Positions 22,181 through 33,234 of a stretch of 64,000 nucleotides of DNA are shown in pieces. Numbering within the stretch: position 1 is the stretch's first letter; each line of letters starts with the position of its first letter. The translations under genes were made by a program, and so were the position numbers. Origin of the DNA: Thermoanaerobaculia bacterium (GTDB lineage: Bacteria; Acidobacteriota; Thermoanaerobaculia; Multivoradales; UBA5704); the NCBI GenBank assembly GCA_044226625.1, contig JBGAGQ010000002.1, positions 128,001-192,000 of the forward strand. Direction: 5' to 3'. A model generated the notes under the pieces. The model did not search any database, was not told the DNA's origin, and saw only the letters and a list, made by a program, of their open reading frames with translations.

Positions 22181-23395
22181 CTACGGGCCGAACTCGCAGA
22201 GATCGTCGGCGCGAATCGCGCGGTGCGCGACCCAGTAGCCCCCGGCGTTCATCCGCACGCCCACCCAGGCCTGGGCGTGGGTGAGGTTGGCATGCCAGAG
22301 GTCGAGCATGGCCCAGCCGGACGGCGCGTCGGTCGGAAGGGACGCGCCGCCGATGGCGACCTTCTGCACGGCGTTCGGAAAGGCATTGCTCGTGCCGATC
22401 GAGAGGGGGTTCTCCTCCTCGTCGAAGAAAGCGATCTGCGCTTCGCCCAGAGGAGACCATCGAGGTGTGGTGCCGCAAGGCCGCGGCGCGGGGGCAGCCT
22501 CCCGCGTATCCCGCCAGACGACGAGCTCCGTACCGCCGCCGAAACGGCCGGCGTCGAGGCTCCGCGCCTGGAACAGTCCGGACAGCGGCGCCCGGTCGTC
22601 GCGGGTGTCGAAACCGACGTAGCGTCCGTAGAACGTGTAATCCCCGGGGCGGAAGAAGGTCGGGTCGGCGACGATCGAAACGGCGTTTTCGCTCGAGGCG
22701 TAACCGTGGGCACGGTCGACCTCGATCGAATCTCCCCAGAGGACGTTGGCGTCGGCCGCGAGCCCGCGTCCGCCCGCGGAGAAGTAGAGCGGATCGACCG
22801 GCGTGTTTTTCGACGCGAGGACAGAGGGTGGGGAGCAGCGGTTCACCACGTCGACGGTCACGTAGCCGATCGCCACGCCGTCCCCAGGGCTCGCCGCGCA
22901 GGTCGGCGGTTCTGTGAGCGGGATCGGGCGGCCGGTGTGTGCAGCGACCAGGCGGGCGACGTCGATCTCACCGAGATTTGCGGCGTCGAGCTCCTGGCAC
23001 CCCTCTCCGAGCGGCGTATCGCGGGAGAACGGTCCCTTGGGGCTCACACCGGGGCCCGTTTGCGGGAGTTGTCCCTGGAAGAGATCGCGCAGGTTGATGG
23101 ACTGTACGTCGAAGCCGGTGAGGTAGATGTCGAAAGCGAGGGTTGGCACCCCCCAATCCGTCCAGAGCACGACCCGCGCCTGCGCAGCGGAGGAGAACGC
23201 GTTGCCGATCGTGAGCAGCGTGGACGCCCCGTCCGGATGGGCGAGATCGACCCGGAAATAGGGGAAGAGGAGGGTTGCGGCCGGCTGGTCGTCCAACCGG
23301 CAATTGCCGGAATCGAGGACGCCGCCGAAGCTCGGCCGGGCGACCGAAACGCCGGTCGCGAAAACGCAGAGCGCGAAAACGCGAAGAGATCTCAT
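22181..23395 (-). CDS. Secreted hypothetical protein of the PAATLL(L/F)PYF family
   Basis: Signal peptide; PAATLLFPYF, LWTDWG, IYLTGFDVQSINLRD, GYVTVDVV, NVLWGD and TFYGRY. Family recalled from Thermoanaerobaculia-like genomes. Confidence 0.75.
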   Translation of the reverse strand: MRSLRVFALCVFATGVSVARPSFGGVLDSGNCRLDDQPAATLLFPYFRVDLAHPDGASTLLTIGNAFSSAAQARVVLWTDWGVPTLAFDIYLTGFDVQSINLRDLFQGQLPQTGPGVSPKGPFSRDTPLGEGCQELDAANLGEIDVARLVAAHTGRPIPLTEPPTCAASPGDGVAIGYVTVDVVNRCSPPSVLASKNTPVDPLYFSAGGRGLAADANVLWGDSIEVDRAHGYASSENAVSIVADPTFFRPGDYTFYGRYVGFDTRDDRAPLSGLFQARSLDAGRFGGGTELVVWRDTREAAPAPRPCGTTPRWSPLGEAQIAFFDEEENPLSIGTSNAFPNAVQKVAIGGASLPTDAPSGWAMLDLWHANLTHAQAWVGVRMNAGGYWVAHRAIRADDLCEFGP

Positions 23396-23449: not shown

Positions 23450-24248
23450 ATGAGCGAGACTCTAGTTCAAATCGGCGGTTCGCTGCGAACCGGGGTGGAA
23501 TCCCGGGGACGGCAAGGTCGGCCAGAGTGGTTGCGCATCCGCTTGGCGGGGCGACGTATGTACCAGGCGCTGCGGATTCTGCGCCGTTACATCGGGACGC
23601 CCGTCTTCGGGCGTGGACGCAGAAGAGCCGGATCACGTCGCCGAGGCGATCGAGGTCATGGGGCTCCGACACTCCGTAATCACCTCCGTCGACCGGGACG
23701 ACCTTCCGGACGGGGGAGCGAGACATTTTGCCGCGGTCATTACGGCGATCCACCGAAGGACGCCCGGTGTGGCGGTAGAGGTTCTTACCCCCGATTTTCG
23801 CGGTGTGCCGGACGCCTTGGACGTCGTGCTCGCCGGCAAGCCGCAAGTCTTTTCGCACAACATGGAGACGGTACCGCGCCTCTACCGTAAGGCGCGTCCG
23901 GGCAGCCGGTACGACCGCTCGCTTGGGCTGCTCGCCGACGCGGCGGACCGGAAAGCCGCGGGGCGCTTCGGGGGATCGATCAAGACCGGCATCATGCTCG
24001 GACTGGGGGAGGATCGAGCCGAGATCGAGGCGACGCTTCGAGACATCCGCTCGGCCGGCGTCGAGGTCATGACTCTCGGCCAATACCTCCAGCCGACTAC
24101 CAAGCACCTGCCGGTCGACCGGTGGGTGACTCCCGAGGAATTTGCCGAGCACCGCCAATTCGCGCTTTCGCTCGGGTTCGGTCACTGCGAATCGGGGCCC
24201 CTGGTTCGGAGCAGCTACCACGCTCACGAGCACGTCGTCGCCGTCTAG
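23450..24248 (+). pseudogene. lipA: Lipoyl synthase with internal deletion/frameshift near 23549 (real or assembly error)
   Basis: Frame 1 reads RPEWLRIRLA, then another frame reads GDVCTRRCGFC...ITSVDRDDL...HNMETV...GQYLQP...LVRSSYHA; the Cx4Cx5C auxiliary-cluster segment is absent. Confidence 0.85.
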
Positions 24249-24435
24249 ACGTCTCCCGAGAGTCGGTCTCGCCGAGCGCTCAAAACCACGTCCGCCCGGC
24301 GATGTCACGTTCCAAGGGCGGTGCGCACCCAACTAAATGAACTCGCGGTGCGGAGCTTCCTCTCTCCGGTGGGGCCTTCGGGACCCTAGCCGTCTGGGAA
24401 GAGGTGTCGTCTCCGGCGGGTTCCTTGGGGCCGTC

Positions 24436-25398
24436 ATGACGCTTTTACCCATCGAAATCTCTCTTCGAGCTCCACTTCGCCCTCCGGTTCGTCCCTCGTT
24501 GCGCGATGTCGGCGTGCCGACGGATTTTCTCGGTTCGAGCCTCGCGATCCGCCGGCTGGTCGACCACTTGGATCTCGCGAGCCGAGGTCTCGATCCGGTC
24601 TTGATCTGCGGCGAGACCGGTTCGGGAAAGAGCCTTGCGGCGCGCATGCTGTATGAGCTGTGCGGTGCGGATTCCGGTTGGGCCGCGATCTCCGCCGACG
24701 CCTTCGACGAGCGGCTCTGCTCGCGCCTGATGAGCGACCGCCGGGACCTGCCCCCGTCGCTCCTGGCGATCGAGGAGGTGGGCGACCTGTCGGGCGCCGC
24801 GCAACGTCGGTTGCTCCGTCTGCTCTCTTCCCGGGGGCCGCGGGTGATCGCCACGACCAGCCGAGATCTGCATCTCGAGGTACGCCGCGGTCTCTTCCTG
24901 CGCTCCCTCCTCGGCCGCCTGTCGAGCTTCGAGGTCGCCGTGCCGGCCTTGAGGGAGCGGCTGGAGGACCTGCCGGTCTTGGTGGAGCGGATCCTCGTCG
25001 AGCTGTCCACCCGGTATCGCAAAGGGGTTCGGGGGATGAGCGCCGAGGCGATCGACCTACTTCTCGGACACCCCTGGAACGGGAATCTCCGGGAGCTGCG
25101 GCATGAGCTGGCGAGCGCGCTCCTCTTGACGCCCGCCGGAGAGGAGATCCGGCCCTCCGCGCTGTCGCCGGACCTCCACGCCTCGGCGCGCACAGGGCGG
25201 TCGACCTCGAGTCTGCGGCAGCGAGCGCGGGAGATCGAGCGAAGCCTCCTCGCGCGCGTCCTGGACACCAACGGCTGGAATGTCTCGGCCGCGGCGCGAG
25301 AGCTCAAGATCAGCCGAGTGGGGCTCTCGAAGAAACTGCGCGTGCTCGAAATGAAGCGTCCGAAGAGCGCGCCGTCGCTCCCCCTGCGACACGCCTGA
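24436..25398 (+). CDS. Degenerate enhancer-binding-protein-like regulator (AAA+ core + Fis-type HTH), no GAFTGA
   Basis: GETGSGKS Walker A, VIATT, PALRERLEDL, HPWNGNLREL and C-terminal WNVSAAARELKISRVGLSKKL. Start uncertain (24337 or 24436). Confidence 0.85.
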   Translation: MTLLPIEISLRAPLRPPVRPSLRDVGVPTDFLGSSLAIRRLVDHLDLASRGLDPVLICGETGSGKSLAARMLYELCGADSGWAAISADAFDERLCSRLMSDRRDLPPSLLAIEEVGDLSGAAQRRLLRLLSSRGPRVIATTSRDLHLEVRRGLFLRSLLGRLSSFEVAVPALRERLEDLPVLVERILVELSTRYRKGVRGMSAEAIDLLLGHPWNGNLRELRHELASALLLTPAGEEIRPSALSPDLHASARTGRSTSSLRQRAREIERSLLARVLDTNGWNVSAAARELKISRVGLSKKLRVLEMKRPKSAPSLPLRHA

Positions 25399-25461
25399 GC
25401 GGAATGCGAGAGGCCCCGCCGTAGTCGGCGCGGCCCCAAGGGAATACGGGGTTCCGCATCC

Positions 25462-25510
25462 TAGACAGACCTGCGGCACGATGGTACCCTTCGAATAGCT
25501 CATTCGAGGG
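25462..25510 (+). promoter_or_regulatory. Sigma70-type promoter of ECF sigma 1 with an adjacent inverted repeat
   Basis: TAGACA (25462-67), 17 bp spacer, TACCCT (25485-90) with TG extension; TCGAAT-agctc-ATTCGA inverted repeat just downstream. Confidence 0.55.
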
Positions 25511-25521
25511 TCGCGGCAGCA

Positions 25522-26055
25522 ATGACTTACCTCCAACAACCCGAGCTTCAAGACAGCTTGAACCAGCTCCTGCTCGCGTCGCGGCCACGGCTGGAGCGCG
25601 TCCTTCGGCATTTCGAAATCCCGCCCGAGGACGCCGAGGACATCCTTCAAGACGCGCAGCTGACGCTGCTCTACAAGTGGGAGCAGATCCGTAGCCCGGA
25701 GAGTTGGTTGGTCGGTACTCTCAAGAAAAAGTGCATCATGTATTGGCGCAAGCGCCGGTCGAGCCTCTGCGATGCGGTGGACACCGCCATCCTCGACTTG
25801 GTCGCCACGCCGATCTCTCCGGATCAGGAGAAGGCCGAGCTCAGCTTCGACCTCAACCGGGTGCTGGGCAACCTGTCGGCGCGATGCCGGTCGCTGCTCA
25901 AGCTGCGTTACGGTCTTGGATATGGCCCGAGCGAGGTCGCCGAGCAGATGGGGTACCGGCTTTCGAGCATTCGAAAGGTGACCAACCGATGTCTCGCGGC
26001 GCTCACGCGGCAGCTCGTGGCCGTCGGGTTCAGCCAGGAGCAGACCGATGATTGA
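25522..26055 (+). CDS. ECF sigma factor (paralog 1)
   Basis: 177 aa; IPPEDAEDILQD (sigma2) and LRYGLGYGPSEVAEQMGY (sigma4 HTH). Confidence 0.9.
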   Translation: MTYLQQPELQDSLNQLLLASRPRLERVLRHFEIPPEDAEDILQDAQLTLLYKWEQIRSPESWLVGTLKKKCIMYWRKRRSSLCDAVDTAILDLVATPISPDQEKAELSFDLNRVLGNLSARCRSLLKLRYGLGYGPSEVAEQMGYRLSSIRKVTNRCLAALTRQLVAVGFSQEQTDD

Positions 26056-27394
26056 GCGCCACCCTTCGAACGAGCAGCTGGTGAGCTTTGGCCGCGCCAG
26101 GCTCTCGCGCCCTCAGAACCGCGAGGTGGTGCGCCATCTACTGTCCGGTTGTCGCCGCTGTGCCCGCTCTCTTGCGGCCGCATTGCCTCCGGTATTTTCC
26201 GTGGGACGCTCGGAGGTCGCGCCGGCGAATTACGACGGCGCGTTCGACAAGGCGCGCATGGCGTTTCTCGGCGCGCGAGCTGATTTCGAAGTCGAACGAC
26301 GTGAGACTCCGGAGCTCCTGTGTGAGCTCGAGGCGCATCCTTTCGAGCGTCAGCTTCTCCTGCTTACGAACAGCCAGAGATTTTGGACTTGGTCGCTCGC
26401 GTGCGCGCTGCTCGATCGCGCGCAGGACCTCGGGTTCAAGGATCCCGGGCGTAGCCTCGACTTCGCTAAGCTCGGCGTTCGGCTCTCGGAGCACCTGTCC
26501 GTCGGCGCCTATGGTGATGCCCGGGTCGCAGATCTTCGCGCCCGCGCCTGGGGGGTGCTCGCCAATGCTCAGCGGATCGGTTCGGACCTTCGAGCTTCCG
26601 GCCAGAGCTTCCTCCGGGCCGAGCGTTCCCTCAAGAGGGGAACCGGGGATCCCGTCGAGAAGGCGCGTTTACTGCTGTTGAAGGCTTCGCTGTTTGCGGA
26701 CCAGCGCCGTTTTCCCGAAGCGATCAAGACGCTCGATCGTGTCGTCGCGATGGCTCACCGGGTCGAAGACGCGCCGCTGATCGCAAGCGCGGCGGTGAAG
26801 AAGGGAATCGTGCTTGGGACGTCCGGCAGGACGGACGAAGCGATCGAGTGCTTGCGAGAGGGCATCCGCGGGATTGATCCTCGCTCGGATCGGCGGCTTT
26901 TCGTGGCCGCGCACCACAACCTGATCGTATACCTGATCGAAGGGGGGCGGTTGGACGAGGCCGTGGCCCTCCTCGAGGCGACGCGTCCGCTCTACGAGGG
27001 CCTCGGCGATCGCATGAACTTGCTTCGTCTCCGCTGGTTGGAGGCGAAGGTCGCCCAGAATCAGGGTCGACTGACGGAGGCGGAAGCTTTGCTCCGTTCC
27101 GTCGGCGCAGAGCTGGCGGAGCTCGGCCTCGGCTACGACTCTGCTCTGCTCGGATTGGACCTTGCCGGCGTCTACGCGCGCCAAGGGCGAACCGAAGAAA
27201 TGCGTACGCTCGCGGCCGAGATGTTGCCCAGCTTCCAGTCGCGCGAGGTGCATCGCGAGGCGCTCGCCGCGTTGATCGTCTTCCAGAAAGCGGCGAAGAT
27301 GGACCGGGTCACCTTGGGACTGGTGCAGGAGCTTTCTGACTATCTTCGCCAGTGCCGCAAGGATCCCGGGGTCCGCCTCCGCGATTCTCTTTGA
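26048..27394 (+). CDS. Soluble zinc-finger anti-sigma-like domain fused to TPR repeats (paralog 1)
   Basis: N-terminal HPS...HLLSGCRRC; TPR-like helical repeats; no TM segment; overlaps the sigma gene end. Confidence 0.8.
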   Translation: MIERHPSNEQLVSFGRARLSRPQNREVVRHLLSGCRRCARSLAAALPPVFSVGRSEVAPANYDGAFDKARMAFLGARADFEVERRETPELLCELEAHPFERQLLLLTNSQRFWTWSLACALLDRAQDLGFKDPGRSLDFAKLGVRLSEHLSVGAYGDARVADLRARAWGVLANAQRIGSDLRASGQSFLRAERSLKRGTGDPVEKARLLLLKASLFADQRRFPEAIKTLDRVVAMAHRVEDAPLIASAAVKKGIVLGTSGRTDEAIECLREGIRGIDPRSDRRLFVAAHHNLIVYLIEGGRLDEAVALLEATRPLYEGLGDRMNLLRLRWLEAKVAQNQGRLTEAEALLRSVGAELAELGLGYDSALLGLDLAGVYARQGRTEEMRTLAAEMLPSFQSREVHREALAALIVFQKAAKMDRVTLGLVQELSDYLRQCRKDPGVRLRDSL

Positions 27395-27540
27395 TCGACT
27401 CGTCTCGCCAGTTCTTCTCCAAAGTTCCTTCGCGCACTCCCCGGAGAATCGCGGCGCGCCCTTCCGGCCGGAAGATGCGTGGCGGTCCGACGTACGTTTG
27501 AGACTCTCGGGAATCCCCGGGAGAGGCCCGTCCGATCGCC

Positions 27541-27569
27541 TAGACAAAATGCCCCCCTCCTGATAATGT
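27541..27569 (+). promoter_or_regulatory. Sigma70-type promoter of ECF sigma 2
   Basis: TAGACA (27541-46), 17 bp spacer, TAATGT (27564-69) with TG extension. Confidence 0.6.
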
Positions 27570-27598
27570 AACTTTGGTTTACACGCTGTACCTACGCA

Positions 27599-28144
27599 AT
27601 GTCCGGCTCCGAACTCGACTCGCGGTCCGAGGCCGCATTCGAAGAACTCATCGACAAGGTCCGCCCGCGCCTTCGGAAGATTCTCTCCCGCTATCGGATT
27701 CCTCCTCAGGACGCCGATGACCTTATCCAGGAAACCTTCCTGATACTGGTCACCAAATGGGGTAGCGTCTCCAACCCCGAGGCCTGGGTTCTTGCAACTC
27801 TTGCCAACCGTTGCATCATCTACTGGCGCAAGAGTCGGTCTCGCCTTTGGGATCTGGTCGATGGAGTGGTATTGGAGCTCCTGGCAGACGTCCAGCCCTC
27901 CTTACAAGAGGGCATCGACCTGCGCGTCGACCTCCAGGCGCTGGTGGCCAATCTGCCCGACCGGTGCCGAAATCTGCTGCGCCTACGCTACCAGCTCGGA
28001 TGCTCGGCCGCCGAGACCGCCGAACGCACCGGGTATTGTCGCTCGAGCATCCGGAAGGTCACCCGACGTTGTATTTCTGCGCTCGCTTCGCAACTTCTGG
28101 CGCAGCCGCTGGCAGCAACCGTCGAGCTCGGCTCCGAGACCTGA
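27599..28144 (+). CDS. ECF sigma factor (paralog 2)
   Basis: 181 aa; IPPQDADDLIQE and LRYQLGCSAAETAERTGY; aligns end to end with paralogs 1 and 3. Confidence 0.9.
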   Translation: MSGSELDSRSEAAFEELIDKVRPRLRKILSRYRIPPQDADDLIQETFLILVTKWGSVSNPEAWVLATLANRCIIYWRKSRSRLWDLVDGVVLELLADVQPSLQEGIDLRVDLQALVANLPDRCRNLLRLRYQLGCSAAETAERTGYCRSSIRKVTRRCISALASQLLAQPLAATVELGSET

Positions 28145-28268
28145 AGAATCGGTCTTTTCGGACCTTTTCGTCACGATTCGCGGCGAAATGTCCCTCTCGA
28201 GCCCCCGAACGGTAACCTAGGTCTTAGAGATCTTTGCGGGCTAATCCGCATTTCCCAAGGAGAACACC

Positions 28269-28562
28269 ATGTCCCGACGTATCGCCCCCTTCGTCACCGC
28301 GCTGGCCCTCGTCTCGACCCTCGCCGTCCCTGCGGTCTCCCAGGCCCAGGCCGCCGCGGGTGTGCGCGAAATCGCCATCGAGTCGTCCTGGCTTTCCGGC
28401 TTGTGGAACCAGCTGATCGACCGCTTGGCGCCTATCGGTGACGCTCTGGGACTGGGTGGCAGGAGACTTGCTTCGCAAACCGGCATCGAACCGATCGCTC
28501 CGAAATCGGAGGCTGGGATCCAAATCGATGCAGACGGAAGGACGGCTCCAGCGAGCAACTAG
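28269..28562 (+). CDS. Small secreted peptide/precursor (97 aa)
   Basis: AAGGAGA RBS; Sec signal ending AQA; WLSGLWNQL helix; C-terminal EAGIQIDADG; GAAA-loop hairpin at the stop. Confidence 0.75.
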   Translation: MSRRIAPFVTALALVSTLAVPAVSQAQAAAGVREIAIESSWLSGLWNQLIDRLAPIGDALGLGGRRLASQTGIEPIAPKSEAGIQIDADGRTAPASN

Positions 28563-28626
28563 CCGAAAGGCTGGCCTGCCAGCGCCGCGTCGCGCGCGGT
28601 TACGCTCCAAATCCCGGTGTCTCGCC

Positions 28627-28659
28627 TGGACTTTGGCACGGGAAAGGTGTACCTTTCCC
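28627..28659 (+). promoter_or_regulatory. Sigma70-type promoter of ECF sigma 3 overlapped by a perfect inverted repeat
   Basis: TGGACT (28627-32), 17 bp spacer, TACCTT (28650-55); GGGAAAGGT-gt-ACCTTTCCC at 28640-28659. Confidence 0.55.
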
Positions 28660-28688
28660 CAGAGTCAGAAATTTGGTGAGCGCTGTCG

Positions 28689-29216
28689 ATGATCGCACTC
28701 GACGAAATTTTTATCGAAACGTCGCTCGAAACGTTTCTCGAAGAAGCACGTCCACGCCTCAAGGTTATCTTCTGTCGTTATCGGATCCCTCCGGACGACA
28801 CCGAAGACATCGTGCAACAGGCCCTCTTGGCCTTGCTCTATCGCCTGGGCTCCGTCCGAGATCCCCAGGCCTGGCTTATCGGTACCGTCAAGAACAAATG
28901 TCTCCTGTATTGGCGCGACCAACGAAGAAGGCTGTATGACTCGGTCGATTCCACCGTGCTCGAATGGATCGCGCAGCCCGCGTCGCCCGAGCAGGAGGAC
29001 CATGACCTCCGGCGGGATCTCTCGGCCGTGATCGAGACCTTGCCCCGACGCTGCCGCGCCCTGCTGAGCTTGCGTTATGGGCTTGGATATGAGCCCCCCG
29101 AAGTCGCTGCACGTTTGGGTTACCGGACCTCGAGCATGAGCAAAATCACGACGCGCTGTCTTTCGCTGCTTACCCGTCAATTACTCATCGCTGGTTTGGG
29201 TCGGAAAAAAATATGA
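28689..29216 (+). CDS. ECF sigma factor (paralog 3)
   Basis: 175 aa; IPPDDTEDIVQQ and LRYGLGYEPPEVAARLGY. Confidence 0.9.
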   Translation: MIALDEIFIETSLETFLEEARPRLKVIFCRYRIPPDDTEDIVQQALLALLYRLGSVRDPQAWLIGTVKNKCLLYWRDQRRRLYDSVDSTVLEWIAQPASPEQEDHDLRRDLSAVIETLPRRCRALLSLRYGLGYEPPEVAARLGYRTSSMSKITTRCLSLLTRQLLIAGLGRKKI

Positions 29217-30601
29217 ACGAGATTACCGATCATCCGAGCCGAGAGGTTCTGGAGCGGTTCCTCTTGGCGCAGCTTCCAGCCTCCGAAAGCCGTCGTGTTT
29301 TACGGCATCTATTGTCCGGCTGCCTGGAGTGCCAGCGCGAGGCGGGCGCCGCGTGGAAAAACACGCAGCCGAGCACGACCTCGCTGCCCATCGACCCAGC
29401 TCTCGACGCCCGATACGACGAGGTTCTCGATCGAGTCTTTCGGCGGGTGGAGCGGGTGGAGCAGCAGCTTGCCCGCGAGCGAGCGCAAGCGCAGGAGCTG
29501 CTCGCGCAGCTCGAGCCGCATCCCATTCAGCGGCAGCGACTCATGCTGCGCAACAGCTCTAAGTTCAAGAATCGTGCGCTTTGCGAACAGATGATCAAGG
29601 CCAGCCACGACCGAGGCTTCAAGGATCCGGCTCGCTCTCTGGAGCTGGCCGAGCTGGCGATCGAGATTTCGCAGTCGGTGCCCGACGACGCGAAGGACGC
29701 CGACCCCAGGCGCCACCTGGAGAGCCGTGCTTGGGCGCAGGCGGGCAACGCGAACCGAATTCTCGGCAATCACGATGTCGCCGAGCGCTGTTTCGTCAGC
29801 GCCGAAGATCTGCTCGCCGATTCCGCCGGCATTGGCATCTTCGACGAGGCGCGCCTGTTCAGCCTCAAAGCTTCTCTACGCCGCGATCAGCGGAGGTGGA
29901 GCGAGTCGCTGGAGTTGTTCGATCGGTCGATCTCGATCTATCAGAGCCTGGGCCAAAGGCACTTGCTCGGGCGAACCTATGCTCAGAAGGCGACCGTCAT
30001 CTCCGAGGTCGGGGATTTCGTCTCCTCGATCTCCATCTTGCGCCGCGCGCTGGAGCTGCTCGATCCCAAGGAGGAACCGCGCATCTTCCTCGCCGCCCGC
30101 CACAACCTGATCTGGGCGCTCTGCGAAAGCGAGCGCTACCGGGAAGCCTTCGCCTTGCTTTTCCATACCCGCCCGTTCTACCTCCAGGCGGGGGATCGGA
30201 TGAACCTGCTAAGGATGAGGTGGCTCGAGGGGCAGGTTGCCGCGGGCCTTGGCCGTCTGGAGCAAGCCGAGGTAGCGTTTCTCGAAGTTCGCCGCTCGTT
30301 CGCCGAGCTCTCGCTCGACTATGACGGCGCGCTCGTTTCGCTCGATCTAGCCGGCCTGCTCGCGCGCCAGGGCCGCGCGGCCGAAGTCCAGCACATCGCC
30401 GAGGAAGTGCTCACCATCTTCGTCGCTCGGTCGATCCACCGCGAGGCGATCGCGGCCATCGCCTTGCTCAAGCTAGCTGCCGACCAGCAGCGCGCCGAGG
30501 TGGCCTTGGTACGGCAGGTGTCCTCGTTCCTGCGCCGCTCTCGGAGCAACCCCGACTTGGTCTTCGAGGTCGGCGACGAAGCGACGTCCGAGGCGAGCTA
30601 G
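29213..30601 (+). CDS. Soluble zinc-finger anti-sigma-like domain fused to TPR repeats (paralog 2)
   Basis: HPS...HLLSGCLEC; shares GFKDP, HNLI, GDRMNLLR-x-RWLE, LDLA and HREA with paralog 1; ATGA overlap with sigma 3. Confidence 0.8.
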   Translation: MNEITDHPSREVLERFLLAQLPASESRRVLRHLLSGCLECQREAGAAWKNTQPSTTSLPIDPALDARYDEVLDRVFRRVERVEQQLARERAQAQELLAQLEPHPIQRQRLMLRNSSKFKNRALCEQMIKASHDRGFKDPARSLELAELAIEISQSVPDDAKDADPRRHLESRAWAQAGNANRILGNHDVAERCFVSAEDLLADSAGIGIFDEARLFSLKASLRRDQRRWSESLELFDRSISIYQSLGQRHLLGRTYAQKATVISEVGDFVSSISILRRALELLDPKEEPRIFLAARHNLIWALCESERYREAFALLFHTRPFYLQAGDRMNLLRMRWLEGQVAAGLGRLEQAEVAFLEVRRSFAELSLDYDGALVSLDLAGLLARQGRAAEVQHIAEEVLTIFVARSIHREAIAAIALLKLAADQQRAEVALVRQVSSFLRRSRSNPDLVFEVGDEATSEAS

Positions 30602-30682
30602 GACCAGATAGGACCCCGCCCCCCGCGGACATCGCACGGGGGCAAAGCCTGAAGCAGGGTAATCCGGCGTTCGAGCGCCGGA

Positions 30683-33088
30683 TTACGTGCGGACTCCCAG
30701 AAACAGATAGCTCGACAGCAGCGAGAAGAGAGCGCTAGGACTCCAGACCGCGGCGGCAGGCGGGATGGCACCGGCTTCGCCGAGCGTCTTGAAAAAGGCG
30801 AAGACGGCAAGGAAGACGATCCCCAGAACGATGGAGACACCGATCCCATAGAGAGTTCCCTGGCGGCCGATCCGAAAGGCGAAAGGCAGAGCCACGACCG
30901 CCATGATCAAGGAGATCACCGGGAAGGCAAGCTTGTTGTAGAGCTGAACTTCGAGCTCGGGTACGGCTTGGCCACTCCCTTTAAGCTCCCGGATGTACGA
31001 TCGCAGCTCGCCGTAGGTCATCTGCTCGGGCGGCCGAATCTCGGCGTCGAAGTACTCGGGTGTCTCGGGAAAGGCGACGGTCCGCTTGCCCCGGAAGCGG
31101 GTGTAGTTTGCAACGCTGCCGTGCGAGAGGATGCGCGCCCACCCGTTTTCGAAGACCCAATTACCATGGCCGGCGTAGGTCGCGTTCTCGGCATAGAGGC
31201 GCCGGACCATCTCGTGATTCGAGTCGAAGTCGAAGACGTGCAACCGCTGGAGGGTGTGGCTTCGCGGGTCGTAGTAGGAGTAGTTGTAAATGAAGCGCCC
31301 GTGACCGAACAGCCACTGGCGGTCGGCGCGCCGATAGGTTCGCACGGTCTCCTTGCCGTTGATCTTGTCGCGCATTTGGGCCACGCGCTCGTTGGAGGCC
31401 GGAAGGACCTGGGTCTCCAAATAGGCACAAAACGAGGAGATGACCAGCGCCGAGACGATGACCGGCAGGGCCAGCCGATAGAGGCTCACCCCGAGCGCCT
31501 TGGCGGCCGTGACTTCGTTGGTGCGCGACAGGAGGCTGAAGGTCATCAACGTCGTCACCAGGATCACGACGGGTGCGATGTCGTAGAAGATCTGGAGCGA
31601 CATGTACTTGTAGTAGGAGAAGACCAGGCCCTTGGCGATCTTGTTCTTCAGAATCTCGTCGATCCTCTCGGTCAGGTCGGCGATCACGTAGAGCGAGATG
31701 CCGGACGCGGTCACGATCGAGAGCACGATCAGGAAGATTCGGACCACATACCGATCGATCAGGTTTGGGAAGAGCAGGCGAAGGCGGGGAATGCGTAGGA
31801 CCACGCCGCGATCGTCGACGCTCCTCGCGGTGGCCACGCCCGCCCGCCCGCCAAGGGCTTCCTCGGGAAGCAGGGGAGCGGCCGACACCGGGCGCTTTCG
31901 AAGCGAGCGGATACGCAGGATTCCCCCCCAGACGTCACGCCGGATCCAACGATCGAAACGAGAGAACAGCAGGCTCTTGTCGCGGTTCCTGCGGATGAGG
32001 AGAAAAATGCCGACGGCGGTCAGGATCAGGTTCGGGCTCCACATGGCGACCCAGCCCGGGATCCGGCCGTAACGTGCGGCCTCCTCGCCGTTGAACAGCA
32101 GGATGTAATAGAAGGCGAGGACGGCGATCGACATCGCGAAGCCGGAGCCCTTCCCGCCGCGCCGGTTGTTGATCCCCAGCGGCAACGCGATAAAGGCGAA
32201 CGCCAGGCACGCCGCGGGAATCGAGAACTTCTTGTGGGTCTCGACCCGAGCGAGATTCCGCTGTTCGTCCGCGGCGCTCCGATCGCGGGCGAGGCGGGAC
32301 AGCTCTTTGAGCGTCAGCTCCCGGACCCCCTTCGAGACCGCCCATTTGGCCCGCTGGTTGGTCATGAACTGGTCTTCCAGGATCAGCTCGAGCTTCTTGT
32401 TCCGGCTTACCTCGAAGCGGGTAGGGGAGGACAGGTTTACTTTCTGCCGCGTGGCGTTGGTGAGCTCCAGCACGACCCGCTCGCCCTGCTGGTCGACCTT
32501 CACCTCACCCCACTCGGCGGTCGTCACCTGGTTGTCTTCGGAGCCCGAGCCGGCTTCGGCGATGAAGACCCCTTTCCATCTCGATTCGTTCGCCGGAGCC
32601 TCGAAGACATAGAGGACCTTGCCTTGCCAGTCCTCGGAGAAGATCCGCGGCTGCACCTGCTGGGACACGCTCCGGGTCAGGATCTCGAGGCGGATCTGTT
32701 GGAGCGAGTGGTTGCCCCAAGGCAAGGCGTAGATCATCAGCACGATGTTGATTGCCGTGAGCAGGCCCGCGAGCGTGAGAATCGGTCGGTAAAGTCGGGA
32801 CAGGCCGATGCCGCTCGCCCGAATCGCCACGAGCTCGCTGTCCGATGCCAGGCGGCCGACCGCGATCAAGATCCCGAAAAGGAGCGACATCGGGATCGTA
32901 AGCACGACGATGTTCGGCAGGGTCACGAGCAACAGCTCGCCAACCGTCGACCAAGGGAGGCCGCGCCGGATGATCATGTCCGCGGACTGGAACAGGAACC
33001 GGAGCAGAAGGATGAACGTGTAGACTAGAAAACCGAGGACGAGAGGCCCGAGGATTTCCCTCAGAACGTAGCGATCGAGGCGGCGCAC
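30683..33088 (-). CDS. lptFG: Fused LptF-LptG LPS export permease
   Basis: Two YjgP/YjgQ units: LDRYVLRE...DSELVAIRASG and LIDRYVVR...NEVTAAKALG. GTG 33088 lies 7 nt after TATAAT. Confidence 0.92.
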   Translation of the reverse strand: MRRLDRYVLREILGPLVLGFLVYTFILLLRFLFQSADMIIRRGLPWSTVGELLLVTLPNIVVLTIPMSLLFGILIAVGRLASDSELVAIRASGIGLSRLYRPILTLAGLLTAINIVLMIYALPWGNHSLQQIRLEILTRSVSQQVQPRIFSEDWQGKVLYVFEAPANESRWKGVFIAEAGSGSEDNQVTTAEWGEVKVDQQGERVVLELTNATRQKVNLSSPTRFEVSRNKKLELILEDQFMTNQRAKWAVSKGVRELTLKELSRLARDRSAADEQRNLARVETHKKFSIPAACLAFAFIALPLGINNRRGGKGSGFAMSIAVLAFYYILLFNGEEAARYGRIPGWVAMWSPNLILTAVGIFLLIRRNRDKSLLFSRFDRWIRRDVWGGILRIRSLRKRPVSAAPLLPEEALGGRAGVATARSVDDRGVVLRIPRLRLLFPNLIDRYVVRIFLIVLSIVTASGISLYVIADLTERIDEILKNKIAKGLVFSYYKYMSLQIFYDIAPVVILVTTLMTFSLLSRTNEVTAAKALGVSLYRLALPVIVSALVISSFCAYLETQVLPASNERVAQMRDKINGKETVRTYRRADRQWLFGHGRFIYNYSYYDPRSHTLQRLHVFDFDSNHEMVRRLYAENATYAGHGNWVFENGWARILSHGSVANYTRFRGKRTVAFPETPEYFDAEIRPPEQMTYGELRSYIRELKGSGQAVPELEVQLYNKLAFPVISLIMAVVALPFAFRIGRQGTLYGIGVSIVLGIVFLAVFAFFKTLGEAGAIPPAAAVWSPSALFSLLSSYLFLGVRT

Positions 33089-33234
33089 GCCGGGCATTAT
33101 ACGGGCTCGATGGGACCGAAGGTGGCCTCGCGCCGTCTCGCTGTGATGCTCCCGAGACGACCGGGCTCACAGAATCGTTCCCAGCGCGCGCCCTACCGAT
33201 CTCGCCAGCAACCAACAAGGAGGTTCCTCCCGCG

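Follow-up and report, generated by a model that had tools for sequence, protein, structure and literature searches.

A candidate peptide-responsive module of ECF sigma factors and soluble zinc-finger/TPR proteins in Thermoanaerobaculia

We analyzed a cluster of seven genes in a 64,000-nucleotide stretch of DNA (hereafter, the window) from a Thermoanaerobaculia bacterium of the phylum Acidobacteriota (assembly GCA_044226625.1, contig JBGAGQ010000002.1, positions 128,001 to 192,000). The cluster encodes three extracytoplasmic function (ECF) sigma factors (sigma1 to sigma3), two proteins in which tetratricopeptide repeats (TPRs) follow a zinc-finger-like N-terminus (TPR1 and TPR2), a 97-aa precursor with a predicted signal peptide, and a regulator that resembles enhancer-binding proteins (EBP-like). 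On our reading, the locus holds two copies of a three-part module typical of Thermoanaerobaculia. As judged by sequence profiles, the N-terminus of the TPR proteins is a homolog of anti-sigma domains, and the proteins very probably act as anti-sigma factors. In the wider family to which they belong, the core conserved pair is a TPR receptor and a peptide. That the exported peptide, or a short unit at its C-terminus, might be the TPR ligand controlling sigma release is a proposal whose chances we rate as even; that the peptide acts between cells is a more tentative suggestion, which we think rather unlikely.

Sigma factors and their probable soluble zinc-finger/TPR partners

All seven ORFs were found on the plus strand (Table 1), in the order that an earlier note on this DNA had given: EBP-like regulator, sigma1–TPR1, sigma2, 97-aa peptide gene, sigma3–TPR2. 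The regulator gene of that note is real, but its proposed start at 24436 is an internal ATG (Met34), a possible alternative start, of a longer ORF that opens at 24337. Direct reading bore out the overlaps described at both sigma–TPR junctions: the start of TPR1 overlaps the stop of sigma1 by 8 nt, and the start of TPR2 overlaps the stop of sigma3 as ATGA.

The three sigma factors fit the definition of the ECF class (group 4), having regions 2 and 4 only and a length of ∼170 to 200 aa. Pfam Sigma70_r2 matched sigma1, sigma2, and sigma3 at 41.5, 47.1, and 34.6 bits (cut-off 24), and the NCBIfam sigma70-ECF model TIGR02937 matched them at 61.2, 69.7, and 63.0 bits, respectively (cut-off 42.9); region 4 was matched in all three and exceeded its cut-off in sigma2 only. 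With a mutual identity of 43 to 47% (43% and 47% relative to sigma1), they are the three paralogous ECF sigma factors that the earlier note had proposed. All NCBIfam models of ECF subfamilies remained below their cut-offs for these proteins, the best being TIGR02983 and TIGR02989, and ECF sigma factors of solved structure are remote from them (best match CnrH, E 1.5e-6). No soluble anti-sigma factor combining a zinc-binding anti-sigma (ZAS) domain with TPRs was found in the available parts of the ECF classification and its supplement (Casas-Pastor 2021, PMC7826278), the rest of which may hold a matching group.

Both TPR proteins read RHLLSGCxxC. The HLLSGCxxC motif on which a ZAS-type assignment had been based is thus present in both, but its spacing is H-x4-C-x2-C, and neither protein has the canonical H-x3-C-x2-C. 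The putative zinc ligands (H7, H32, C37, and C40 in TPR2 numbering) are nearly invariant in an alignment of 62 homologs, and the fourth of the set, H7, lies ∼25 residues upstream of the others and aligns with the N-terminal His of ChrR. When a profile of the N-termini of all 24 family members in the source genome was compared with all Protein Data Bank (PDB) sequences, ChrR ranked first (E 1.7e-4), with an alignment over positions 3 to 90 that takes in the Cys pair as well as the N-terminal His; DdvA (E 8.8e-4) and Mycobacterium tuberculosis RslA (3hug_B, E 0.014) were also matched. This homology to three anti-sigma domains upholds the earlier description of the N-terminal part as anti-sigma-like. 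Among the 24 N-termini, seven matched Pfam zf-HC2 at E ≤ 0.1, and one paralog with canonical spacing scored above the cut-off of that family, as did a 916-aa relative (29.6 bits). A model of the first 100 residues of TPR2 (pLDDT 89.4) has four helices. The 50 matches listed in a fold search with this model were all coiled coils aligned on its long helix (residues 58–100), with a best Z of 5.7 and residues 1 to 57 barely covered.

The pairing of a sigma gene with a TPR gene extends far beyond the genus. By a rule-based count, a sigma gene lies directly upstream in 60 of 78 orthologous loci of the TPR2 type, which come from different species named as Thermoanaerobaculia, Acidobacteriota, or similar metagenome-assembled genomes. 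In distant families of the class, where the TPR proteins carry the canonical H-x3-C-x2-C, the same arrangement was found in 12 of 14 loci. The sigma–TPR part of the synteny whose conservation had been put forward as a check is kept in most loci of both sets. The gene order of orthologous loci is (peptide A)–sigma1–TPR1–sigma2–peptide B–sigma3–TPR2, sometimes with a third TPR gene behind. It is because the sigma–TPR pair is old and conserved that an anti-sigma role appears so likely for the ZAS–TPR proteins.

The family is large and confined in its distribution. Its 24 members in the source genome score >200 bits, versus ≤86 bits for generic TPR proteins, and relatives have from 14 to at least 40 matches each (15 to at least 40 in the same taxonomic family). 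Among 301 sampled genomes of the phylum, the ZAS–TPR family was present in 11, all 11 of them Thermoanaerobaculia. A library of 1.84 billion cluster representatives (50% identity) contained 4849 family proteins at E ≤ 1e-30, and a search of the ESM Atlas returned unnamed acidobacterial TPR clusters only. The 24 paralogs comprise 18 with H-x(3-4)-C-x2-C (x4 in 16, x3 in 2), 4 with an XRE helix–turn–helix (HTH) domain in its place, and 2 that are truncated. The four XRE-HTH paralogs form one clade in a tree of the TPR parts (support 100/100). Only 3 of the 24 adjoin a sigma gene, and the neighbors of the other paralogs hold no common third component, the exceptions being small XRE genes at three loci and an EBP-like gene at one. 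Long forms of the family also occur (P0143, P0133, P0156, and P0186), including a 916-aa protein with zf-HC2 and two TPR modules and a 723-aa protein with two TPR modules. Family proteins of ∼1100 aa carry an XRE HTH between two TPR modules and may be fusions or joins made by gene calling.

Outside the zinc motif, TPR1 and TPR2 (40% identical over 450 residues, E 1e-91) would suit a cytoplasmic receptor. Kyte–Doolittle hydropathy supports the earlier statement that neither has a transmembrane segment: no hydrophobic segment was seen, and the maximal 19-residue means are 1.09 and 1.31. The long TPR-like part that had been described behind the zinc motif, the remaining ∼350 residues, is recognized by Pfam TPR_12 above its cut-off (58.9 bits in TPR1, 49.7 bits in TPR2) and modelled as a superhelix. 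In an AlphaFold model of TPR2 (pLDDT 91.8, pTM 0.80), three short helices (10–17, 23–34, and 38–51) and a long one (62–100) are followed by 17 helices between residues 105 and 445. A search of 48,161 representative PDB chains with this model placed LGN first (Z 24.9) and Pins second (Z 23.8). Peptide receptors of the RRNPP type followed: RapI at rank 3 (Z 22.3; 311 of 359 residues aligned), NprR with NprX at rank 4 (Z 20.7), the phi105 Rap with its peptide at rank 6 (Z 19.8), RapH at rank 10 (Z 19.1), the pLS20 Rap at rank 13 (Z 18.8), and PlcR at rank 33 (Z 16.2), with MalT domain III at rank 20 (Z 17.4). At the sequence level, a PDB profile match to Rap105 (E 1.7e-5) sits among generic TPR matches, and weak matches to TPR_MalT and AfsR stay below their cut-offs.

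A family of predicted exported precursors and its proposed role

The precursor encoded between sigma2 and sigma3 has a predicted signal peptide (residues 1–28; 28269–28352), a Trp-rich amphipathic helix (residues ∼39–56), and a C-terminal unit, GIQIDADG (residues 83–90; 28515–28538). Its C-terminus, ...GIQIDADGRTAPASN, fits the peptide family described below. The signal peptide was recognized by a hydrophobic stretch (Kyte–Doolittle mean 2.06 at residues 5–23) with Arg-Arg before it and an A-Q-A site after it. The same pattern in 33 aligned precursors agrees with the earlier view that the ORF encodes a secreted product.

Small ORFs of the same anatomy adjoin half of the paralogs (12 distinct peptide genes at 12 of the 24). 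Each encodes a signal peptide, an amphipathic helix whose Trp hardly varies, a linker that differs between precursors and is often rich in Pro, Gly, or Thr, and, toward the C-terminus, the unit G-x-x-[ILMV]-D-[PGD]-[ND]-G. By search rules that were written after examples had been seen, the genome holds 18 candidates, 10 of which lie within 1 kb of a paralog versus 0.13 expected. Co-occurrence of peptide genes with TPR homologs, which had been set beforehand as a test, is thus observed. Six of the other eight candidates passed a coding filter, and only one of these, on contig C60, is family-like. The search rule did not ask for Gly at position −7, yet 79 of the 88 units, taken from 68 distinct precursors, have it.

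Some individual loci stand apart. The family-like gene on contig C60 (C60:15875-16171, plus strand) has unrelated neighbors and no TPR family member near. Two tandem small ORFs with signal peptides on contig C107 (C107:11880-12684, plus strand) are Cys-rich and ∼60% alike in their positions by eye; they were rejected as family peptides, being unrelated ORFs that passed the loose rule by chance. Beside the XRE-HTH paralog on contig C5, a family peptide gene lies on the opposite strand and ends 14 nt from the paralog's stop.

That the 97-aa ORF is not a gene, or that its adjacency has no functional meaning, we regard as very improbable. Its codon-position GC contents (0.65, 0.57, and 0.74) show a modest contrast between third and second positions; it belongs to no family in Pfam, NCBIfam, or PADLOC; and a profile of the peptides reached E ≤ 0.001 with just 12 database proteins, all of them unnamed and devoid of Pfam domains. 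Such observations would fit a spurious frame. A strong Shine–Dalgarno sequence (AAGGAG, 7 nt ahead of the ATG) speaks for a gene instead, and a Shine–Dalgarno sequence and start codon precede 29 of the 33 peptide genes. Between genera the linker varies, but the reading frame is kept, as are the signal peptide, the helix, and the end motif. The excess of 10 over 0.13 beside paralogs points the same way, as do, weakly, RNA-library contigs over the 3′ half of the ORF.

Comparison of orthologous loci shows how the precursor changes. Same-genus genomes keep the peptide gene between sigma2 and sigma3, and their units read GIQIDGNG three times in five genomes and GIQIDGDG twice in one, with one diverged unit in another. 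The gene occupies the same position in other genera, where the precursor is shorter and often has its stop codon directly behind the unit (e.g., ...G-A-R-I-D-G-N-G). A peptide gene was found upstream of the sigma gene in 32 of the 58 orthologous loci with enough flanking sequence. At most two residues follow the last unit in 25 of these 32 precursors, and 10 of the 32 have two or three tandem units, as do some paralogs. Because unit sequences differ between lineages, the duplications appear to be independent. The window peptide is 40 to 47% identical to its same-genus orthologs; TPR2 diverges less, with 77 to 83% identity in six of the seven same-genus genomes and 65% in the seventh.

Ten of the 14 loci from the distant families also hold a small ORF of 56 to 125 aa next to the TPR gene, either immediately behind it or convergent with it. 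The encoded protein combines a signal peptide with a basic amphipathic helix and has an end of the type L-[ED]-D...P-x-P, of which the two Pro residues do not vary among 11 sequences. These families keep the trio with a different peptide, which implies that the linkage of a small secreted peptide with the sigma/ZAS–TPR pair predates the G-x-x-I-D-x-N-G family. Among the distant loci (L080–L101), L080 has two tandem peptide genes, and the peptide at L095 has a repeated end unit.

This linkage and the propeptide-like anatomy are the grounds on which we propose the peptide, or its C-terminal unit, as the ligand of the TPR proteins. The module would then consist of an ECF sigma factor; a cytoplasmic anti-sigma factor with a zinc-binding domain of the ChrR/RslA type in its first 55 to 100 residues and a TPR sensor in the remaining ∼350; and a small Sec-exported precursor composed of signal peptide, Trp-rich helix, variable linker, and the unit G-x-x-[ILMV]-D-x-[ND]-G. 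The precursor would be exported and then cut. Its C-terminal unit, or several units where the precursor has been duplicated, would re-enter the cytoplasm and bind the TPR groove, altering the hold of the zinc domain on the sigma factor, and the freed sigma factor would join RNA polymerase. The peptide gene of the window, which stands directly upstream of sigma3–TPR2, would have its own conserved promoter; sigma1–TPR1 would be a second pair, lacking its own peptide in the source genus, and sigma2 an unpaired paralog. Of these steps we infer the binding, the direction of its effect, the re-import, and any sharing of the signal between cells.

A different role for the peptide would be as an output of the system: a membrane-active or surface product, bacteriocin-like or surfactant, whose gene is controlled by the sigma/anti-sigma pair while the TPR part senses another ligand or a protein. 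The amphipathic helix could serve such a product, since all precursors have one, Trp-rich here and strongly basic in the distant family (KIIKKIIKKI type). Tandem duplication, however, hits the short C-terminal unit and not the helix. A promoter-like motif unlike the sites of the sigma genes precedes the peptide gene, as would fit a regulon member, and regulators often neighbor their targets. Yet peptide genes also lie beside TPR paralogs that have no sigma gene, one of them of the HTH type, and across the class the peptide families change together with the receptor clades, as expected of cognate pairs. On balance we find a pure output unlikely, and the two roles are compatible, as RRNPP peptides are both ligand and target.

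The system might also be private to the cell. In that case the TPR part would bind precursor still in the cytoplasm, or the unit would report on a periplasmic protease of the same cell, so that secretion or envelope state, not cell density, is measured. A soluble anti-sigma factor of an ‘extracytoplasmic function’ sigma factor would need an envelope messenger, and the Sec signal peptide of the precursor suits that part; a diderm host would favor periplasmic retention, and the arrangement recalls FlgM export and the TPR-class chaperone-regulators of type III secretion. Dozens of divergent receptor–peptide pairs per genome fit a single housekeeping signal poorly, and the C-terminal unit, which diverges fast and has been duplicated, looks shaped by the evolution of specificity. 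We therefore rate this explanation as less probable still than a secreted output.

Several observations count against the ligand proposal, or against parts of it. In the fold search, LGN and Pins outrank the RRNPP receptors and TPR subunits of APC/C score alike (Z 19–20), so that the modelled fold would suit a TPR receptor that binds peptides and has the size of RRNPP proteins, without singling out RRNPP; no Pfam or NCBIfam family links the TPR proteins to RRNPP receptors. The zinc motif of the window proteins has one residue more than the canonical ZAS motif, and Pfam zf-HC2 matches neither TPR1 nor TPR2. Of the paralogs, 21 of 24 have no adjoining sigma gene, and 12 of 24, as well as 26 of 58 orthologous loci, have no peptide matching the rules; the enrichment figures given above are themselves inflated because those rules were made post hoc. 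The window peptide is not directly beside a TPR gene, sigma3 lying in the gap of 651 nt, and it has one near-consensus unit (DADG for DGNG), its two upstream units having decayed relative to the same-genus copies. Only one gene for an Opp-type binding protein, a candidate import route, was found in the genome. Finally, the host is presumably diderm, as assumed from its phylum, and a peptide acting between cells would need to pass two membranes.

If the peptide is the ligand, the family could amount to dozens of pheromone channels per cell, each made of a Sec-exported propeptide and a cytoplasmic TPR receptor of its own. They would have arisen from a zinc-finger anti-sigma factor, independently of the RRNPP systems of Bacillota, and in some of them the peptide would directly free an ECF sigma factor. 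This broader picture is speculative, and we are inclined to doubt it.

Promoter-like sites and flanking genes

Comparison of genomes revealed two kinds of promoter-like site (Table 1). A housekeeping-type pattern with an extended −10 element, [CT]T[AG]GAC[AT]-N14/15-TGnTAnnnT, was seen by eye ahead of every sigma gene (18 of 18) at the orthologous locus in seven genomes, and it was not seen before two unlinked sigma paralogs. An automated sigma-70 scan returned no sites in the region, and the sites listed come from the comparison alone. The block CCTGGACTTTGG-n3-GGGAAAGGTGTACCTTT (28625–28656) is invariant in five same-genus genomes. It contains the palindrome AAAGGTGTACCTTT, which overlies the −10 region of the sigma3 site and may be an operator.

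The peptide gene has a different motif, in a block that is likewise invariant in five same-genus genomes. Its pattern, TGTC[CT][CT]-N16/17-G[ACT][AT]AC[CT], a rule derived post hoc, precedes 10 of 33 peptide genes, namely 9 of 9 orthologs of the window peptide and one further paralog (shuffle mean 0.03), and is absent before the 11 other peptide genes of the genome. A common ECF-type promoter for all peptide genes was considered and rejected: the genome has 14 sites, 3 of them no more than 1.5 kb from family members, versus 17 in a reversed-sequence control, which indicates no overall genome-wide enrichment. Should one of the three sigma factors read the peptide promoter, the module would be auto-inducing. 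Terminator-like sites number 6 in the region versus 4.1 expected, and the hairpin behind sigma2 is weak taken alone. Across 24000 to 31000, Rfam gave no match at E ≤ 0.1.

RNA-library contigs from one study (runs X2 and X7) overlie parts of sigma1, TPR1, the pre-peptide region, the stretch from the 3′ half of the peptide gene into sigma3, and the start of TPR2; such contigs show neither transcription, strand, nor level, and uncovered stretches carry no meaning. Those of metatranscriptome run X2 (95–99% alike) represent parts of five of the six module genes within 25400 to 30700, and one of them (28400–28758) joins the peptide stop to the sigma3 start. We take these contigs as a weak hint of module expression.

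The EBP-like protein matched Pfam Sigma54_activ_2 (71 bits), AAA_lid_14 (63 bits), and HTH_8 (40.5 bits) and lacks a receiver domain. Reading of its translation revealed no GAFTGA-type loop, and it probably does not act through sigma-54 for that reason. Sigma-54 promoters were rejected: reading found GGCACG ahead of both sigma1 and sigma3 but no −12 element, and the loop is missing from the EBP-like protein. PADLOC matched the AAA/HTH part of this protein and none of the module genes. The gene was found in only 4 of 14 orthologous loci, upstream of sigma1 and all in the same genus (L058–L061), and its membership in the module is doubtful. A second EBP-like gene (L003:67-1011, plus strand) adjoins another TPR–peptide pair of the same genome.

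On the other flank, an 804-aa multi-pass membrane ORF (30683–33097, minus strand) is kept as a neighbor across genera: the orthologous locus adjoins this gene in 12 of 14 loci from relatives, the other 2 having ended short. Reading of its translation suggests an LptF/LptG-like protein. A 404-aa ORF (22181–23395, minus strand) has an N-terminal hydrophobic stretch and lies beside a lipoyl-synthase-like gene in same-genus loci.

Table 1. Features of the locus and XRE-HTH paralogs of the source genome (window positions unless a contig is named)
Feature	Position	Strand	Description
EBP-like regulator	24337..25398	+	Truncated AAA+ domain, lid domain, Fis-type HTH
Housekeeping-type promoter-like site before sigma1	25462..25490	+	TAGACA, 17 nt, TG-n-TACCCT
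ECF sigma1	25522..26055	+	177 aa; Pfam and NCBIfam scans
TPR1, soluble anti-sigma candidate	26048..27394	+	448 aa; ZAS-like N-terminus (H5, H29, C34, C37) and C-terminal TPR superhelix
Housekeeping-type promoter-like site before sigma2	27541..27569	+	TAGACA, 17 nt, TG-a-TAATGT
ECF sigma2	27599..28144	+	181 aa; without adjoining anti-sigma gene
Terminator-like hairpin and T-run	28151..28164	+	Just behind sigma2
Peptide-gene promoter-like motif	28189..28229	+	TGTCCC, 17 nt, GTAACC, then TCTTAGAG
Pre-pro-peptide ORF	28269..28562	+	97 aa
Housekeeping-type promoter-like site before sigma3	28627..28655	+	TGGACT, 17 nt including TG, TACCTT
ECF sigma3	28689..29216	+	175 aa
TPR2, soluble anti-sigma candidate	29213..30601	+	462 aa; ZAS-like domain (H7, H32, C37, C40) and TPR superhelix
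XRE-HTH paralog	contig C5:43431-44906		Locus L021
XRE-HTH paralog	contig C13:8835-10514		Locus L012
XRE-HTH paralog	contig C46:17494-19389		Locus L020
XRE-HTH paralog	contig C57:597-2168		Locus L017

Relation to known systems

The earlier note knew of no characterized system with such an architecture, and our targeted literature search likewise found, among the papers listed, no description of a sigma factor, a ZAS–TPR protein, and a secreted peptide in combination. The search returned no paper on RRNPP systems in Acidobacteria and none on sigma factors of Thermoanaerobaculia; RRNPP and anti-sigma factors came together in unrelated reviews only. If the broader pheromone picture is true, the module would be without precedent in two ways: as peptide quorum sensing through a cytoplasmic receptor in a diderm phylum, and as an anti-sigma factor under pheromone control. 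A convergent system in Acidobacteriota would broaden the known range of peptide quorum sensing, and the size of the family suggests that a major layer of regulation has gone unstudied in a common lineage of soil and sediment that is mostly uncultured. A defined sigma factor, anti-sigma factor, 8- to 11-residue peptide, and candidate target promoter would lend themselves to a heterologous reporter and to orthogonal switches for synthetic biology.

The available part of PMC10075063 treats peptide signaling through cytoplasmic TPR receptors as characteristic of Bacillota and of the mobile elements that they carry. The same part of that source supplies the RRNPP signature of five criteria with which we compared the locus. 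The window precursor (97 aa) falls within the propeptide range of 10 to 100 aa, with the longest ORFs of some paralogs reaching ∼157 aa, and has the Sec signal, as predicted from hydropathy and the A-x-A site. TPR1 and TPR2 (448 and 462 aa, with TPR_12 matches and a modelled superhelix) fall within the receptor range of 250 to 500 aa with TPRs. Direct neighborhood of the two genes (−60 to 400 bp) is not found in the window, and it is found in 11 other paralog pairs, with gaps of 14 to 362 nt.

The predicted module thus resembles RRNPP(A) systems (Rap/Phr, NprR/NprX, PlcR/PapR, and AimR/AimP) in its cytoplasmic TPR receptor and linked gene for a small Sec-type propeptide, in the conserved propeptide C-terminus with tandem duplication of the presumed mature unit, and in the many paralogous pairs per genome. 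Tandemly duplicated propeptides have been described for RRNPPA systems (PMC11343458, as available in part), and the traits of Phr-type propeptides, namely small size, a Sec signal, a conserved and duplicated C-terminal unit, and fast divergence, are given in the available parts of PMC10075063, PMC11343458, and PMC9765709. Some Thermoanaerobaculia paralogs carry an XRE HTH ahead of the TPR part, like PlcR and NprR, and proteins of the Rap and NprR types rank near the top in the structural comparison with the TPR2 model. Unlike RRNPP receptors, the window proteins would act through a zinc anti-sigma domain on an ECF sigma factor, and no Pfam or NCBIfam family joins the two groups by sequence. 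The host is acidobacterial and presumably diderm, the precursors are longer and have a conserved amphipathic helix, the window peptide and its receptor are split by a sigma gene, and ligand binding and import are putative here.

According to the available part of PMC7826278, a fused C-terminal TPR extension regulates the ECF42 sigma factors without a membrane anti-sigma factor. The window system would likewise tie a TPR domain to ECF sigma control with no membrane anti-sigma factor; unlike ECF42, it has the TPRs on a separate protein with an anti-sigma domain, minimal sigma factors of 175 to 181 aa, and a linked peptide gene. MalT and AfsR are TPR sensors to which weak sequence similarity (below cut-off) and, for MalT domain III, structural similarity (Z 17.4) were seen; the window proteins differ from them in having no STAND NTPase domain, another N-terminal domain, and another gene context.

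A close likeness in design is to ChrR–sigmaE of Rhodobacter sphaeroides (ECF11) and to other soluble ZAS anti-sigma factors such as RsrA: a soluble two-domain protein, with the zinc anti-sigma domain first and the sensor domain second, shares a transcript with its ECF sigma factor. ChrR, described in the available part of the PMC7826278 supplement as a soluble zinc-finger anti-sigma factor with a cupin-like C-terminal sensor, also heads the PDB sequences matched by the N-terminal profile. The window proteins differ from ChrR in their H-x4-C-x2-C motif and in having a TPR superhelix, not a cupin, as sensor, and the window sigma factors are remote from all ECF sigma factors of solved structure. 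For the window proteins the presumed signal is a genetically encoded peptide, in contrast to the singlet oxygen or thiol oxidation sensed by ChrR and RsrA; in that case an encoded peptide would join redox and singlet oxygen among the signals of soluble anti-sigma factors.

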